Virus record (IMG/VR): IMGVR_UViG_2734482780_000003 | Strand: one strand, 5' to 3' | Source of the DNA: a virus | Taxonomy: Duplodnaviria > Heunggongvirae > Uroviricota > Caudoviricetes | Length of the DNA: 4,941 nt | Shown: positions 1 through 4,941 of the stretch, piece by piece | How positions within the stretch are numbered: position 1 is the stretch's first letter | Layout: each line of letters opens with the position of its first letter | Notes under the pieces: model-generated | Seen by the model: only the letters and a program-made list of their open reading frames with translations | Told to the model about the DNA's origin: nothing | Databases searched by the model: none | Position numbers and translations under genes: made by a program

Positions 1-260
1 AATTTCCCTTTGCATACCAGGGCAAAACCTTTCCAGCCGATATACACCGTCAGGACAGCGCCACGAACCGGCAGCCCGACCTGCCCGTCGGCATCGTTCA
101 GTTCAATATCAAGCTGGTCAGCCTCAAAGCCCCGGTTATCCGTCAGGGTCATGCTCATCAGACGGTCGCTGATATTGCCGGTAATATCCCTGCTGTCGAG
201 CATCAGCATGTAATCCGGCGTCAGCGTACTGCCTGCATCAAATGTCAGCGCATCCAGCAT
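1..260 (-). CDS. D: Phage tail protein D (P2 gpD-like), N-terminal part only; the gene continues beyond the window start
   Basis: ATG at 260..258 opens a minus-strand frame with no stop down to position 1, translating MLDALTFDAGSTLTPDYMLMLDSRDITGNISDRLMSMTLTDNRGFEADQLDIELNDADGQVGLPVRGAVLTVYIGWKGF..., which I recognise as the gpD N-terminus. The start overlaps the U stop (TAATG). Position after U matches P2 order T-U-D. Absent from the ORF track because it has no in-window stop. Confidence 0.8.
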   Translation of the reverse strand, partial: MLDALTFDAGSTLTPDYMLMLDSRDITGNISDRLMSMTLTDNRGFEADQLDIELNDADGQVGLPVRGAVLTVYIGWKGFALVCKGK

Positions 261-739
261 TATCCCGCCCCCGTCATACCCGTGAATTTAGTCGCCATAC
301 TGCCAGCCTTACCGATGAGCGATTCCGCCTGTTTACCGATATCGCCATAAAGCGCGACCAGTGATTCATCAACGCGGGTGAGCGACAACGTAAAATCAAT
401 TTTCCGGGGTGTGCCGTCTGCAAAGAAAATACTCCCTGTTTCACTCACCCTGCTGATGACATACATGCCGTAAATCATGCCGGTGCCATCCAGCAACGGC
501 CACGCCCGGCCTTCCTCTGCCATCAGCCTGAGCGTGGTCATCGTCAGCTTCCCGCCGGTCAGTTCGGGATAAAGCACGCCGGCAAGCGTCATGTTTTCCT
601 CACCCACACCGAGAAACTGAAAGGCATCCCGTTTACCGATACGGGAATTTGACGGCCAGCGATAATCTGATTCGCGCTGCATGGTCTGGTGTGGCAGCGT
701 CTGGCGCATAAAAACAAACATACCTAACGCGAGCATCAT
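260..739 (-). CDS. U: Phage tail protein U (P2 gpU-like), 159 aa
   Basis: Complete ORF from ATG 739..737 to TAA 262..260. A GGAGGTGA Shine-Dalgarno (reverse complement of 744..751) sits about 6 nt upstream of the ATG. Product MMLALGMFVFMRQTLPHQ...TGMTGAG matches my recollection of gpU. Lies immediately downstream of the T stop, as in P2. Confidence 0.88.
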   Translation of the reverse strand: MMLALGMFVFMRQTLPHQTMQRESDYRWPSNSRIGKRDAFQFLGVGEENMTLAGVLYPELTGGKLTMTTLRLMAEEGRAWPLLDGTGMIYGMYVISRVSETGSIFFADGTPRKIDFTLSLTRVDESLVALYGDIGKQAESLIGKAGSMATKFTGMTGAG

Positions 740-753
740 TTTTCGTCACCTCC

Positions 754-2083
754 TTAACCGTCATGCATCATGCTGGCACGGGCGCGCGCACGTTTATCCC
801 GCTCGTATTTTTCGAGCGCATCCTGTAACTGGCGGTCAAGCTGTGTCCCCGGCGCAGTACCACCCGTCAGGCTGATGTGATATTCGTTTTTACTCTGGTC
901 CACATAAGAGCGGCCAGCCGGTGCCGTGACCGGCTGATAAGCCTGATAGCCTGCATAAGAGCTGGTCGCCGGAATATAACCACCGGTGCCATACGTGGCG
1001 GCATTAGTCCTTGCGGCGGTCTGGTCAAGTGTGTCTGACTCTTTGTTGATGACACCGAGTTTTTCCAGTACCCAGTCAATACCACTGCGCAGTTTGTTGA
1101 ACGCATTAAGCGGCAGCATCAACGCGTCAGCCAGTGCCTGCCCGAACATGACACCCGTGTCACGGCAACGGTTCAGGGTGTCCTGGGTGGCTTTGACCGG
1201 GGCAATCAGGTTTTTAAACCACTGCCACGCGGCCTGTAACTTTTCGCCCAGCCAGTCAAACACCGGCTTAAGTGGCGTGAACAGTTCCCCCACCGGCGCA
1301 AATGCCGCTTTCAGCCCTTCCACCACACCGCCAAAGAATGCGCTGACAGGCTCCCAGTATTTACGAATAAGCAACGCCCCGGCGACAATGGCGGCCACCA
1401 CGGCAACAACCGGCCAGCTAATCGCCCCGATGGCCGTCATAACAGCACTGCCAACCGTCGTGAAGATTGCCCCCATTGCGCCTGCTGCCGCGATGATGGC
1501 ATTGATGCCGGTGATAACCGGCCAGGCTACGAGGCCAATGGCACCGATGACGCCAGTCAGCGCCAGTGCGCCACCGACAATTAGGCCAATGGTTGACGCC
1601 AGTGATTTGTTTTTCTGGATCCAGCCGTCGAGTTTTAACACATACTTTGTGGCCGTCTGTGTGAGCTTACGCAGTGCGCCTTCCTGCTGGTCAAACAGGT
1701 CAGTCCCCACCGCTTCATAAGCGGACTGAAACTCCTTAAAGTCACCGCCGAGGTTATCCTGCATGATTTTAACCAGCTCTTCCGTTTTACCGTCCGAGGC
1801 TTTCAGCGTGGCGGTCAGCTTATCCAGTTTTCCGCTTGCTGCCGCTGCCAGTAAAACGTTCGCTGATTTCAGGGCTTCCTCACCAAAAATGGTTTTAAGG
1901 TATTCCCCCTTCTGAGACGTTCCCAGCTTGTGTTTATCAAAGCTGGCCTGAATCTCTTTCAGAATGGTGAACAACGGGCGCATATTTCCCTTTTTGTCCG
2001 AGGTTTTAACGCCAAGCTCTTTGAGTGCATCCCATGCTTTCCCTGTCGGAGCCTGTAATCGGGTGACAACGGCACTGCTACCC
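754..2083 (-). pseudogene. T: Tail tape measure protein T (P2 gpT-like), 5'-truncated: C-terminal portion only, frame intact to the native stop
   Basis: Minus-strand frame is open from 2094 to the TAA at 756..754; the first ATG is at 1983..1981, giving the 409-aa track ORF. The product has tape-measure character (central Gly/Ala-rich hydrophobic segment, ending ...EKYERDKRARARASMMHDG) and is followed by U and D. There is no N-terminal half: upstream the sequence switches abruptly to the 5' end of J. Confidence 0.75.
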
Positions 2084-2188
2084 GTAAAGGGAAATCAGTG
2101 TCGCCTTGCGTTCAGCGAGAATGCTTTCAAAGTCCAGCTCCTCGACCACATCCGGTGCGGGTAGCTGGTTCAGGTCGATAATTGGCAT
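2078..2188 (-). pseudogene. J: Baseplate assembly protein J (P2 gpJ-like) remnant: first 35 codons, then one non-native Gly codon and a TAG stop
   Basis: ATG 2188..2186, four nt after the W stop, translates MPIIDLNQLPAPDVVEELDFESILAERKATLISLYG*. I recall this as the gpJ N-terminus, which in P2 continues ...SLYP.... Here homology ends after the Tyr codon (2086..2084) and a TAG follows at 2080..2078. Confidence 0.75.
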
Positions 2189-2192
2189 GGTT

Positions 2193-2540
2193 TCAACTCA
2201 CAGGGATGGTTAATGAAAGTGGCTGGCCGGTGTCGTTGTGCTGGCCGGTTAACGTGGCCGTCATTCGCCCGTCAAAACTGCGCTCAGTGGTGACGGATGA
2301 CAGGGTGACGCGGGGTTCCCATTTCAGCACCGCCATGTAACAGGCGACCTTAATCTGCAACTCAAGCGCCGGGGTCTGCGGCTGGTCAATCATTGATGCC
2401 AGCAACGAGCCGTAATCACGACGCATCACCCGTGAGCCGACCGGTGTGCGCAGGATATCGCCGATACTCTGGCTGATATGCTCAAGGTCAGTGACAGTCA
2501 GGCCATCACTGCGATTCATTCCGAGATAACGCGCTGTCAT
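2193..2540 (-). CDS. W: Baseplate wedge protein W (P2 gpW-like), 115 aa
   Basis: Complete ORF from ATG 2540..2538 to TGA 2195..2193. The start overlaps the V stop (ATGA). Product MTARYLGMNRSDGLTVTDLEHISQSIGDILRTPVGSRVMRRDYGSLLASMIDQ... matches my recollection of gpW. Synteny V-W-J. Confidence 0.9.
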   Translation of the reverse strand: MTARYLGMNRSDGLTVTDLEHISQSIGDILRTPVGSRVMRRDYGSLLASMIDQPQTPALELQIKVACYMAVLKWEPRVTLSSVTTERSFDGRMTATLTGQHNDTGQPLSLTIPVS

Positions 2541-3172
2541 AAAGGACTCCCGGTTGTGCCGCCGCTGTCGCCGGGGTGTTTATGGGTATGCAGTACCTTA
2601 CCGTTTGATGAGAGTTCACCGCCGGTGTGTTCAATGTTGCCGCGCATCGTCCCGCCCTTCTGCACTTCCAGCGTGCCGGTAATCAGCCTGTTGGTGCAGA
2701 CCACCTCCGGGGTGTCCAGGGTGACGCGGGTTGATGCTTTCACCATGAACACCGGCACCGTGGCAGTAACAGAATCAGAAGCCGTCACGCTGGCCGTTTT
2801 AATTCCGCTTACCGTGAGTGCACTGGTTTCGGGTTCATATTCAATCACCGCCCCGTCAGGGAAACGGATATGCAGGGCATCCGCCGACACAGACGGCGAG
2901 GGGTTATCGCCGGAATAAATCCCCGGCAGAACGAACGCCGTGTCGAGTTCACCACCCACGGCCAGAATCAGCACCTGTTCCCCCACGGAAGGTGCCCACC
3001 ATGTGCGCGAACGCCCGGCACGATGGGTCAGCCACTGAAGCCAGTCGGTGCACATGCCGCCGGTCTGCACGCGGCAGCGACCGGCGTTAAGGTCGGTTTC
3101 GACGATAATGCCGGTGCGAATCATGTTGCGCAGTGCGCGCGCGAGTTCCTGAATATTTGCGAGAGTGTTCAT
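2537..3172 (-). CDS. V: Baseplate spike / central hub protein V (P2 gpV-like), 211 aa
   Basis: ATG at 3172..3170 (MNTLANIQELARALRNMIRTGIIVETDLNAGRCRVQTGG...) to TGA 2539..2537. The track ORF starts 6 codons earlier at a TTG (3190..3188), which I reject in favour of the ATG. Product matches my recollection of gpV. Confidence 0.88.
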   Translation of the reverse strand: MNTLANIQELARALRNMIRTGIIVETDLNAGRCRVQTGGMCTDWLQWLTHRAGRSRTWWAPSVGEQVLILAVGGELDTAFVLPGIYSGDNPSPSVSADALHIRFPDGAVIEYEPETSALTVSGIKTASVTASDSVTATVPVFMVKASTRVTLDTPEVVCTNRLITGTLEVQKGGTMRGNIEHTGGELSSNGKVLHTHKHPGDSGGTTGSPL

Positions 3173-3182
3173 GCATGTGAGA

Positions 3183-3240
3183 TTGCACAATATATAAAAG
3201 TTATGCTATCTGGATTCATTTGTAGAACTACCAGACAACA
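3183..3240 (-). promoter_or_regulatory. Candidate Ogr/Delta-activated late promoter for V (P_V-like): TGT...ACA partial dyad plus an AT-rich -10-like element
   Basis: On the minus strand upstream of the V ATG: TGTTGTCTGGTAGTTCTACA (3240..3221) contains TGT-N11-ACA (or TGT-N14-ACA), followed about 30-40 nt downstream by TTTTATATATT (3199..3189). P2 late promoters carry a TGT-N12-ACA activator site near -55 and P2 has a late promoter in front of V. The spacing here is not an exact match to the consensus as I recall it. Confidence 0.4.
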
Positions 3241-3255
3241 TTCAAGGAGAGCGTA

Positions 3256-4041
3256 ATGGTCAGCTATAATGTGACTAATGTGTGGGGGCTAATCGTTTTT
3301 TTCCTTTGTAGCTTTGCAGTATTAGCATTTTTTAGCTTTGGTAAAAGTAACCTTATGAGGCTTATTGCACATTATTTCAATTTTGGATATTCAGACAAAA
3401 AATTAAAAAGACTTGACCGCGAGTGGCGCGACATTCAACTATTTAAAATAATTAACGGAATCAATGTATCAGGCATTGAAAATGTGAGAATGATACAGCA
3501 GGGACTGATTGATGGAAAACTAAAAACATCGTATTTTTTCCTTACTCGCATCTGGGGTGACATAACAAAACCACCACACATAATTAAAACAATAATTGTA
3601 ATTCTGGCCAGTATTATTTATATTCTCTTCGCATGTTATATACACAACAAACAATCCGCTATAGTAAGAGATGCCATAGGCATACCATATAAAAATATGA
3701 TGTACTATGTTTATAGTGACAAAGTTCTTTTATCCTTCAAAAATAAAGCAGTTGAATTTAATAAAACTTATAGCCTTGCCGATTGCAAGAGACTGCAAAA
3801 CGTATTTATAAAAGACACACTTCCTGAAATCGCCTGCAATAAGCTCTTACAGCTAAACGAGGAGGACTCCGAATGGTTAAGCCAGGAGATTAAAGATAAT
3901 AACAGTCACAAAAAAGCATTATTAATACTATCCCTCGTCTATTTCACTTCAGGTCTGGTTATATTCCTGTCATATACAAAATTCTTTTACGCCAATAAGA
4001 AGGTTTTAGAATACAAAGCATCAAATAAAAATCACTCATAA
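3256..4041 (+). CDS. Hypothetical AT-rich membrane protein (261 aa, three predicted transmembrane helices); cargo gene at the S/V junction, the position occupied by orf30 in P2
   Basis: ORF from ATG 3256 to TAA 4039..4041. AAGGAG Shine-Dalgarno at 3244..3249 with 6-nt spacing. Followed 6 nt downstream by a 13-bp perfect hairpin. Composition is markedly AT-rich (roughly one-third GC by eye, against more than half in the flanking phage genes) with many ATA/AAA/AAT codons. Hydrophobic segments at residues ~9-29 (VWGLIVFFLCSFAVLAFFSFG), ~108-130 (HIIKTIIVILASIIYILFACYIH) and ~221-241 (ALLILSLVYFTSGLVIFLSYT). Orientation is opposite to the surrounding phage operons. No recognisable homology from memory. 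Confidence 0.7.
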   Translation: MVSYNVTNVWGLIVFFLCSFAVLAFFSFGKSNLMRLIAHYFNFGYSDKKLKRLDREWRDIQLFKIINGINVSGIENVRMIQQGLIDGKLKTSYFFLTRIWGDITKPPHIIKTIIVILASIIYILFACYIHNKQSAIVRDAIGIPYKNMMYYVYSDKVLLSFKNKAVEFNKTYSLADCKRLQNVFIKDTLPEIACNKLLQLNEEDSEWLSQEIKDNNSHKKALLILSLVYFTSGLVIFLSYTKFFYANKKVLEYKASNKNHS

Positions 4042-4046
4042 ACCTC

Positions 4047-4083
4047 TAAACATTGAGCGACCAGCATGGCCGCTCAATGTTTA
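4047..4083. terminator. Bidirectional intrinsic terminator hairpin between the convergent cargo gene (+) and S (-)
   Basis: Perfect inverted repeat TAAACATTGAGCG (4047..4059) / CGCTCAATGTTTA (4071..4083) around an 11-nt loop (4060..4070), with possible extra CCA/TGG pairing inside the loop. It lies 6 nt after the cargo stop and about 30 nt after the S stop. T/A-rich runs follow on both strands (TTAATT on plus; AGAGGTTTATGAGTGATTTTTATTTG on minus). Confidence 0.7.
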
Positions 4084-4112
4084 ATTGCGCATCAGCCTCT
4101 GCCTGGATAAAA

Positions 4113-4565
4113 CTAACGCTCAAGGTGAGCCAGGATAATCTCCTCAATCATCTGCACATCCTCACCGGTAAAGCCGAGCAGAGGACGCGCCGGATAATCA
4201 ATTTTCTTACCGTCTTTCCGGGTTTCTTCCGACAGACCGAACTGATGCACACTGGCGATTTTCGGCGACTTCCCGCCGTAAAATTCCATTGATGCCTGCT
4301 CCGGGCTGGCGCGGATATGCAAAAAACGACTGGTGATAAGTTTCGCAAACATTTTTCGCTTAACACGACCAGTCTTTTTTCTGGCGCTCTGCTGCTGGCG
4401 TGGCGCGTAGGGTGTGCCGTCCGGGGCTTTCTGAGCCATCACCCGACGCTGCTGACTCTGCCGCAGACGTTTCGCCAGTTCGGCGCTCAGTCGCCGACGC
4501 CCTGACGGTGACAGCGATTCAATCAGTCCGGTCAGCCGGTCTTCAAAACGCTTAAACTCATTCAT
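4113..4565 (-). CDS. S: Tail completion protein S (P2 gpS-like), 150 aa
   Basis: Complete ORF from ATG 4565..4563 to TAG 4115..4113. The start lies 8 nt inside the R stop region (R TGA at 4560..4558). Product MNEFKRFEDRLTGLIESLSPSGRRRLSAELAKRLRQSQQRRVMAQKAPDGTPYAPRQQQSARKK... matches my recollection of gpS. Confidence 0.88.
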   Translation of the reverse strand: MNEFKRFEDRLTGLIESLSPSGRRRLSAELAKRLRQSQQRRVMAQKAPDGTPYAPRQQQSARKKTGRVKRKMFAKLITSRFLHIRASPEQASMEFYGGKSPKIASVHQFGLSEETRKDGKKIDYPARPLLGFTGEDVQMIEEIILAHLER

Positions 4566-4941
4566 CCCACTTGCTCACCAGTTCGCCATTGATATAAAGC
4601 TCCACCGGGCGGGTGACCGGCTCCGGCGGCGTGGGTTCCGGGATATTCTTCACATGCAGTGCGCCGTCCACCTCACTGACCAGCGTGCGCTCGGTCAGCA
4701 TCAGGCTGATGCTGATATCAAAGCTGCTGTCATTGTTGATGTCTGCATAAAACGTGAAGCCCTTTTTCTGGCCTTCGTCAGTGGTCATGATGTCGGGCTG
4801 ATTTTCCCGCAGCCACGCCAGCACCGGCACGATGAGCAGGTCAAAATCACCGGTAAAGTCGGTCACAATCACATTGAGCGTGTAACGCTTTTCGAATGAC
4901 AGCGACGTCGCCAGTGTGGAGGCAATACTCCCGTTACACGC
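4558..4941 (-). CDS. R: Tail completion protein R (P2 gpR-like), C-terminal part; the 5' end lies beyond the window end
   Basis: Minus-strand frame is open from the window end to TGA 4560..4558, translating ACNGSIASTLATSLSFEKRYTLNVIVTDFTGDFDLLIVPVLAWLRENQPDIMTTDEGQKKGFTFYADINNDS...SKWDE. The track start at 4872 is an internal GTG; the true start is upstream of the window. Matches my recollection of gpR and the R-S order. Confidence 0.82.
   Translation of the reverse strand, partial: ACNGSIASTLATSLSFEKRYTLNVIVTDFTGDFDLLIVPVLAWLRENQPDIMTTDEGQKKGFTFYADINNDSSFDISISLMLTERTLVSEVDGALHVKNIPEPTPPEPVTRPVELYINGELVSKWDE

Follow-up and report, generated by a model that had tools for sequence, protein, structure and literature searches.

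How does a prophage come to have the beginning of its baseplate gene J followed at once by the second half of its tape-measure gene T? The puzzle is posed by 4,941 nucleotides (nt) of DNA from the viral record IMGVR_UViG_2734482780_000003 (the window, by which I mean the whole stretch that was analysed). Its minus strand reads R'-S-(orf30)-V-W-J'-'T-U-D', collinear with the late region of P2-like phages. An earlier note on this DNA had supposed that everything between codon 35 of J and the middle of T was deleted, and the supposition held up against P2, Wphi and a prophage of E. coli EC261. I propose, with a probability of about 0.82, that the arrangement goes back to one recent internal deletion of 8,628 bp in a P2-like prophage, made by RecA-independent joining at a short homology and starting from a fragile point in J. 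The deletion itself is routine, one more defective P2-like prophage. What it adds is a recurrent breakpoint: at least nine other independent deletions in public genomes start at the same place in J.

The join between J and T

The stump of J (J', 2078..2188, minus strand) begins with the J start at 2188 and reads MPIIDLNQLPAPDVVEELDFESILAERKATLISLY plus one glycine. It matches native J through Tyr35, after which come GGG and the stop TAG (2080..2078), just as the earlier note had it; the 36-aa product, 35 native codons and the glycine, is also encoded on Logan contig SRR2239636_264. BLAST comparison with P2 and Wphi puts the end of the J match at J nt 105 (codon 35, P2 11396) and the beginning of the T match at T nt 1117 (codon 373 of 815). 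The frame of the T remnant is +1 relative to that of J'. A TGA at 2097..2095 closes it upstream and it is open from 2094, which is where the earlier note had seen a different frame open; T-derived sequence begins within it, at 2086/2085.

What was joined to what can be read directly from the two parents. J reads ...CCCTTTAC/CCGGAAG, T reads ...GGCGGGTAC/GGGTAGC, and the window reads ...CCCTTTAC GGGTAGC. In a three-way alignment, the trinucleotide TAC (2084..2086, minus strand), at once J nt 103-105 and T nt 1116-1118, is the sole sequence common to both parents, and the flanks are otherwise unrelated. A direct join with 1-10 bp shared and no inserted DNA is the mark of a short-homology illegitimate deletion, and that is what the junction presents. 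Inspection of its sequence, with repeat and RNA scans, gave no IS end, terminal repeat, target duplication, recombinase core, filler or RNA family at that point. A local frameshift as the source of J' was rejected: the -1 and +1 frames of J give other tails, RKISRRRSPVP and GRPAGGGRPYPDAGI.

The closest intact relative supplies what is missing. It is the prophage beside fieF in E. coli EC261 (NZ_AP027423.1), which holds both flanks of the junction in one element, 8,628 bp further apart than they are in the window. From position 4936 onward the R-to-J flank is 100% identical to EC261, and the T-U-D flank differs from it at 7 of 2,086 nt (99.7% identity). By BLAST, P2 8544-11396 matches window 4936..2084 at 98.4% over 2,853 nt (R', S, orf30, V, W and the first 105 nt of J), while Wphi 19149-21234 matches 2086..1 at 99.5% over 2,086 nt (T from nt 1116/1117, U and the start of D), a span in which P2 stands at 93.5%. 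The gene order R-S-(cargo)-V-W-J...T-U-D, the high nucleotide identity and the collinearity apart from the gap are those of a P2-like (Peduovirus) late region, and by sequence the window appears to come from the late genes of a P2-like prophage with the EC261/Wphi type of mosaic. Its source contig has no host flank, the window ending inside R and D; the nearest relative is integrated beside fieF.

EC261, Wphi (NC_005056) and P2 (NC_001895) thus have the same gene order and near-identical sequence, and the window lacks the interval from J nt 105 to T nt 1119. The loss, estimated in the earlier note as on the order of 8 kb, comes to 8,628 bp against Wphi and EC261 and to 9,571 bp against P2, whose Z/fun cargo is larger. 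With it went J codons 36-302, I, H, G, a gene for a 299-aa hypothetical (cargo) protein, FI, FII, E/E' and T codons 1-372: in terms of function, the bulk of J (baseplate protein), I, H and G (tail fibre and its chaperone), sheath (FI), tube (FII) and the tail assembly proteins E and E+E'. At the protein level S, V, W and U match EC261 at 100%, the T remnant is one residue off and the 86 visible codons of D are identical, which argues that the deletion is recent. On the state of the remaining genes the earlier note was right where the window allows a judgement. It had called the baseplate, completion and distal tail genes undamaged and U and D intact, which holds for S, V, W and U (159 aa, 739..260) and for what is visible of R (from about codon 29) and of D (codons 1-86).

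Can the junction be trusted?

Another account is that nothing was deleted: a genome had two P2-like prophages and an assembler linked J of the first to T of the second, or a library fragment was chimeric. A left flank that is P2-like (98.4%, with orf30) and a right flank that is Wphi-like (99.5%, against 93.5% to P2) look like the product of such an error. The contig is short, the junction is found in no large collection, and the Logan contig that shares it ends 73 nt after it, fitting a graph branch at a second copy of T. Yet precisely this P2-left/Wphi-right mosaic exists in the single intact prophage of EC261, so the mosaic is ancestral and no sign of chimerism, and a second prophage is not needed. 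Over 2,931 nt the Logan contig, SRR2239636_264, which has been recorded in 2 samples, matches the window at 100%; a second assembler therefore reached the same junction, and misassembly is unlikely on that ground. An overlap of only 3 bp cannot be crossed by a k-mer assembler without real reads that span it. Then there are the nine other loci with the same J end, some on contigs of Mb scale. I regard an artefact as very improbable.

Looser junction patterns brought up chance matches, a contig of low coverage and full of errors (L017) and a genuine J::FI junction (L012), which is among the nine.

One J end, ten partners

J nt 104-106 is the left end of ten junctions verified at the level of DNA, that of the window and those of nine other loci, each with a different downstream partner and all on the same strand. 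The joins read TTTAC/GGGTAG in the window (to T), TTTA/TATCAGC in L012 (to FI), TTTACC/GAATAC in L030 (to J nt 873), TTTA/TGGCCGG in L032 (to D), TTTACC/GAAGCT in L033 (to H), TTTA/TTCTTGC in L035 (also to H), TTTA/TCTGGGA in L036 (to FII), TTTAC/ACACCAA in L037 (to D), TTTA/TGCCAGC in L038 (to ogr, with 6 bp shared, CCTTTA) and TTTACC/AAAGAGG in L039 (to FI). Every one falls at a microhomology of the TA or TAC(C) type, and J is never kept past nt 106. All ten are deletions, from 0.77 to 11.7 kb where the partner maps to the EC261 reference, and no inversion was seen among them. The loci sit in different chromosomal contexts (fieF, yegR-yegQ, pflB-focA and others); the L030 junction occurs in 55 collection blocks and the L037 junction in 34. 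These are independent deletions with a common J end and different partners, which is one of the things to be asked of a hot spot such as I propose here. Because the same J end meets ten partners in this way, on one strand and at TA-containing microhomologies, I call the point fragile. Other deletions in the same prophage family have microhomologies of 0-8 bp at many sites, typical of illegitimate recombination.

Protein records tell the same story on a larger scale. At 90% identity the J' peptide clusters with stumps that break at the same place and continue differently, 15 members in all, with tails -G*, -GR*, -RR*, -RMW*, -LT*, -AGWYI*, LISL* and a J35::FI fusion. Homology searches with a 40-aa stump and with native J residues 1-70 found about 140 further short J N-terminal products, from which local +1/-1 frameshift products, Nextera-adaptor chimeras and contig-end partials were set aside. 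Among the 35 distinct junction-type tails that were left, spread over codons 29-101, 17 start right after Tyr35. Most tails come from reading, out of frame, genes that lie downstream in the same prophage and on the same strand, and the partners end in TAC or TAT. The partners inferred from peptides are J nt 873, I nt 120, FI nt 426 and 484, FII nt 216 and 291, T nt 1119 (the window), D nt 698 and about 848, and ogr nt 20. In literature searches no account came up of a breakpoint that recurs in P2 gene J with nucleotide precision, and nothing on SRR2239636.

Might the clustering at codon 35 reflect selection or sampling, and not a bias of mutation? Perhaps only W and some 100 nt of J are worth keeping, or perhaps only such stumps are called as genes. 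W is indeed intact in nearly all remnants examined, even in the highly reduced L036 and L038, and the census drew on called open reading frames (ORFs) of 31-123 aa, retrieved by their similarity to the stump. A boundary set by selection or by ORF calling should be a zone, and the ten partners join within 3 nt, J nt 104-106. The search with J residues 1-70 favoured longer stumps, yet it gave only about ten junction-type products over codons 36-70. Furthermore, the 16-nt stretch in which the deletions end gives many +1/-1 frameshift variants, which speaks for a mutational cause. I think it quite unlikely that selection or sampling made the cluster.

Close to the window in kind are multiply deleted P2-like remnants of E. 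coli and Salmonella (for example L030, L037, and L035 and L038 at yegR-yegQ), with the same J nt 104-106 end, strand, TA/TAC(C) homology and loss of tail genes. They differ in carrying further deletions, IS insertions or duplications and in having spread through lineages, whereas the window has a single clean deletion with undamaged flanks. Its partner site in T was not seen in the other remnants. K-12 keeps ogrK and a fragment of D at the yegR-yegQ locus.

Several observations on these remnants may be set down here. Certain right-hand sites recur and are reused by different deletion events in different genomes: S nt 32/34 (15400-15402 in L004, the EC261 prophage), for example, by L022 and L037, V nt 359/360 (17120-17121) by L030 and L036, W nt 290 (17683) by L033 and P0050, and ogr nt 13-20 (29559-29566) by L038, P0031 and P0073. 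L036 (KB733421.1, GCA_000351965.1, 3376-5746) is a scrambled remnant containing the J::FII junction twice, in the order V360..J105, FII212..E171, J76..J105, FII212..T22 and back to the M-L spacer, which suggests that the duplicate arose by tandem duplication or by way of a circular intermediate. The tail that follows from joining J35 to D nt 698 is found both in E. coli L037 (TPKTRNRKSRR) and in the Salmonella Poona protein P0024 (TPKTRSRKSRR); either the remnant was transferred between E. coli and Salmonella or the same two sites were joined twice. One genome (GCA_964054995.1, OZ041005.1) has two EC261-type prophage copies, L019 and L020, with different internal head-gene deletions, one running from terminase nt 1133 to M nt 453, the other from terminase nt 897 to S nt 249. 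Some public J-stump proteins (P0041, P0048, P0067 and P0077) end in translated Nextera adaptor (CLLYTSPSPRDA, VSYTHLTLPT) and are artefacts of untrimmed reads.

What lies at the J site

The point at which J breaks has three candidate features: a stem (CTGAT/ATCAG and TTCC/GGAA), a TTTCCCTTTACCC run and CCCGG. The stem belongs to a predicted 9-bp bulged quasi-palindrome, CTGAT-TTCC[CTTTACCC]GGAA-G-ATCAG, and the breakpoint lies in its 8-nt loop. According to the fold of the intact EC261 site, the window retains the left arm and part of the loop, CTGAT-TTCC[CTTTAC...] (2075..2112, minus strand), the right arm having been deleted. About half of the partner sites also lie in predicted loops; their z-scores are not significant and they are uninformative.

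The homopolymer-rich stretch ATTTCCCTTTACCCGG is J nt 99-115 (in EC261, L004 17844-17860), and only its left half is kept in the window (2092..2084). Public proteins include many +1/-1 frameshift variants of J that arise in the same stretch (for example P0018, P0019, P0040, P0042, P0043, P0046 and P0147), whose tails are ...RKISRRRSPVP and ...GRPAGGGRPYPDAGI. It looks like a general hot spot of mutation or sequencing error, beyond its part as a deletion end.

As to CCCGG, the J breakpoint lies directly 5' of it, one base 5' of CCGG. An enzyme might therefore cut at or near TTTA/C/CCGG, with microhomology end joining of the broken DNA giving one-sided deletions; candidates are restriction of the CCGG/CCNGG type and modification-dependent restriction of DNA methylated by the prophage's C5-cytosine methyltransferase. 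That J is not retained beyond the site in any of the ten DNA-verified junctions accords with a cut there, as does the orphan DNA cytosine methyltransferase encoded by EC261-type prophages (L004 3187-4125). In one event, P0022, inferred from a peptide, the sequence continues through CCGG and the microhomology is 8 bp long. CCGG is in excess near the breakpoints of P2-like remnants, starting within -1..+3 nt of 4 of the 16 left breakpoints (0.64 expected) and within -1..+5 nt of 5 of the 22 right ones (1.2 expected), both ranges having been picked after the data were seen. There are, moreover, 237 CCGG sites in the 29.9-kb prophage, so CCGG alone cannot explain one dominant hot spot, and neither the T partner of the window nor most of the other J partners have it. 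The link to CCGG presumes the specificity of the methyltransferase, and RecBCD would be expected to degrade both ends in a prophage that has no Chi. Such a cut is an unlikely explanation. Overall, 9 of 38 breakpoints have CCGG within a few bases on their 3' side against an expectation of about 1.9, which was noticed after the fact.

It is harder still to credit a site-specific or transposon event, in which a phage integrase or invertase acted at pseudo-sites or an IS made an adjacent deletion. The site has dyad symmetry and resembles the reverse complement of the P2 attP core, some relatives have a Pin/Cin-type invertase near the fibre genes (L027), and the dinucleotide TA is common to all partners. 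Beyond TA/TAC(C) the partners share nothing that could serve as a common core, the ten DNA-verified events are same-strand deletions without an inversion among them, and the window junction has no IS end or terminal repeat such as an IS would leave. The prophages concerned, furthermore, occupy different att sites and therefore carry different integrases. The likeness to attP, ATCTCCCTT-ACACGGG (reverse complement, L031 357-384) against ATTTCCCTTTACCCGG (L004 17835-17851), amounts to about 14/16 with one gap, which by estimate is within chance for a 33-kb genome, and it was set aside as probably that.

Other ideas were dropped. The gpA nick site at ori (GCGCCTCG/GAGTCC) has no resemblance to the J site. 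A Chi-protected end was rejected on a count of zero Chi sites in the prophage. The type IA topoisomerase rule (C at -4) fits J and ogr and fails the other partners. CRISPR self-targeting was rejected by reasoning, as survivors would keep the PAM and protospacer.

How the deletion may have come about

Short-homology illegitimate recombination and deletion end points associated with palindromes are classical subjects in E. coli, from the work on lacI and lambda-bio, and SbcCD cleaves hairpins. The deletion here spans J nt 105/106 to T nt 1116-1119, and I propose that it was of the same nature as those, RecA-independent and by short-homology illegitimate joining. It would have begun with a break in the DNA, or with a 3' end that stalled, at J nt 104-106, in the loop of the quasi-palindrome and 5' of CCCGG. 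The J-side end would stay and a variable length would be lost from the other side, until the two ends could anneal at TA or TAC(C). The classical deletions have the same junctions of 0-8 bp, without a recombinase site and with one end in a quasi-palindrome, which in J is a predicted one. Unlike them, the J system has one end fixed within 3 nt while the partner ranges over 0.77-11.7 kb.

One may go further and suppose that J nt 104-106 is a targeted breakage point of a nuclease, directed by structure or by sequence, which sets off the repeated one-sided loss of the tail module. The nuclease could be one that cleaves hairpins or a CCGG-linked restriction enzyme, possibly provoked by the prophage's own cytosine methyltransferase. 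I offer this tentatively, as an idea with the odds against it. If it were true, P2-like prophages across E. coli and Salmonella would become inactive by a preferred, mechanistically defined route and not by random decay. A true mutational hot spot would make a tractable model of prophage inactivation, with a defined site, a simple selection (for loss of a tail-module marker) and testable causes: the quasi-palindrome, the ATTTCCCTTTACCCGG stretch and CCCGG.

Several considerations weigh against the single short-homology deletion from a fragile point. The deletions reach 11.7 kb, which is long for simple replication slippage. The hairpin is weak (-11.9 kcal/mol, with z = -2.25 over 71 nt and z = -1.56 over 60 nt), and its stem lies in coding sequence, where covariation is no test of structure. 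By P(k)=(k+1)(1/4)^k(3/4)^2, about 5% of random joins should show 3 bp or more of microhomology, so the shared TAC is suggestive, not decisive. The hot-spot census, limited to called ORFs of the sizes given above, is a biased sample, and selection for keeping W and the J stump may have contributed. Searches of 5,426 complete E. coli genomes, of the GTDB species representatives, of IMG/VR and of the JGI metagenomes did not find the junction itself, which makes it a private event of one strain or a few. It is seen in assemblies from one or two sequencing runs, and a chimeric or heteroplasmic junction is formally still conceivable.

What the deletion would mean for the prophage

In the P2 record, FI, FII, E, E+E', T, H, I and J are tail or baseplate genes, several of them marked essential. 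It is on that record that the element would no longer be able to build a tail, as the earlier note had also reasoned, and it would be a defective ("grounded") prophage, having lost genes for virion assembly, unless a second P2-like prophage complements it. E. coli genomes with any P2-like copy often have more than one. Failing complementation, the element could neither make tailed particles nor help a satellite of the P4 type. Like grounded prophages as a class, it was inactivated by an internal deletion that left the remaining genes intact, and the evidence supports a recent clean short-homology deletion, ordinary prophage decay and a known kind of event. R-type tailocins, which are bacteriocins, likewise derive from P2-like tail modules, but in them it is the head genes that are lost, while sheath, tube, fibre and tape measure stay; in the window it is sheath, tube, fibre and the N-terminal half of T that are gone.

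Transcription should be affected as well. According to the P2 record, the V-operon terminator and pF (the activator site and the start of the F operon) belong to the stretch that was deleted, so that the T remnant, U and D could probably be reached only by read-through from pV. No terminator-like site was predicted on the minus strand between J' and D'.

For annotation the stumps have a practical use: "hypothetical proteins" of 31-60 aa that begin MPIIDLNQLPAPDVVEEL are J stumps and mark deletions of this sort.

The rest of the window

Upstream of the junction, all on the minus strand except where stated, come first W, the gp25-like baseplate wedge (2193..2540, intact, 115 aa, the exact protein occurring in 159 collection blocks), and V, the baseplate spike (2537..3172, intact, 211 aa, identical to V of EC261). 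The position homologous to the late-activator binding site of pV in P2 (misc_feature 10239-10266) is at 3214..3241, by alignment only (98.4%). Beyond it is the AT-rich cargo gene resembling orf30 (3256..4041, plus strand), which encodes 261 aa at 33% GC, against 55% elsewhere. It is present in P2 and EC261 and not in Wphi, is oriented opposite to its neighbours S and V and encodes hydrophobic segments; for the gene of identical length in related loci no Pfam family is on record. Between it and S is a palindrome with 17-bp arms (inverted repeat I6, 4047..4083), which corresponds to the terminator of the O operon in the P2 annotation (9397-9433). S itself, for tail completion and virion morphogenesis (4113..4565), is intact, with 150 aa identical to S of EC261. 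The tail completion gene R (R', 4558..4941) has about 28 N-terminal codons beyond the edge of the window and is collinear with P2 R and with EC261 14909-15376.

Downstream, on the same minus strand, the window ends in D' (1..260), the first 86 codons of D cut by the window edge, with a translation equal to the EC261 D N-terminus. The tail protein U precedes it at 260..739. The T remnant (754..2085) consists of tape-measure codons 373-815 and the stop, without the native start. Its first in-frame ATG is at 1983, preceded by AAGGGAAAT, and could start a candidate product of 409 aa (1983..754), for which an exact look-up found no record. The part of T from that ATG onward retains the Gly/Ala-rich hydrophobic central segment of the tape measure.

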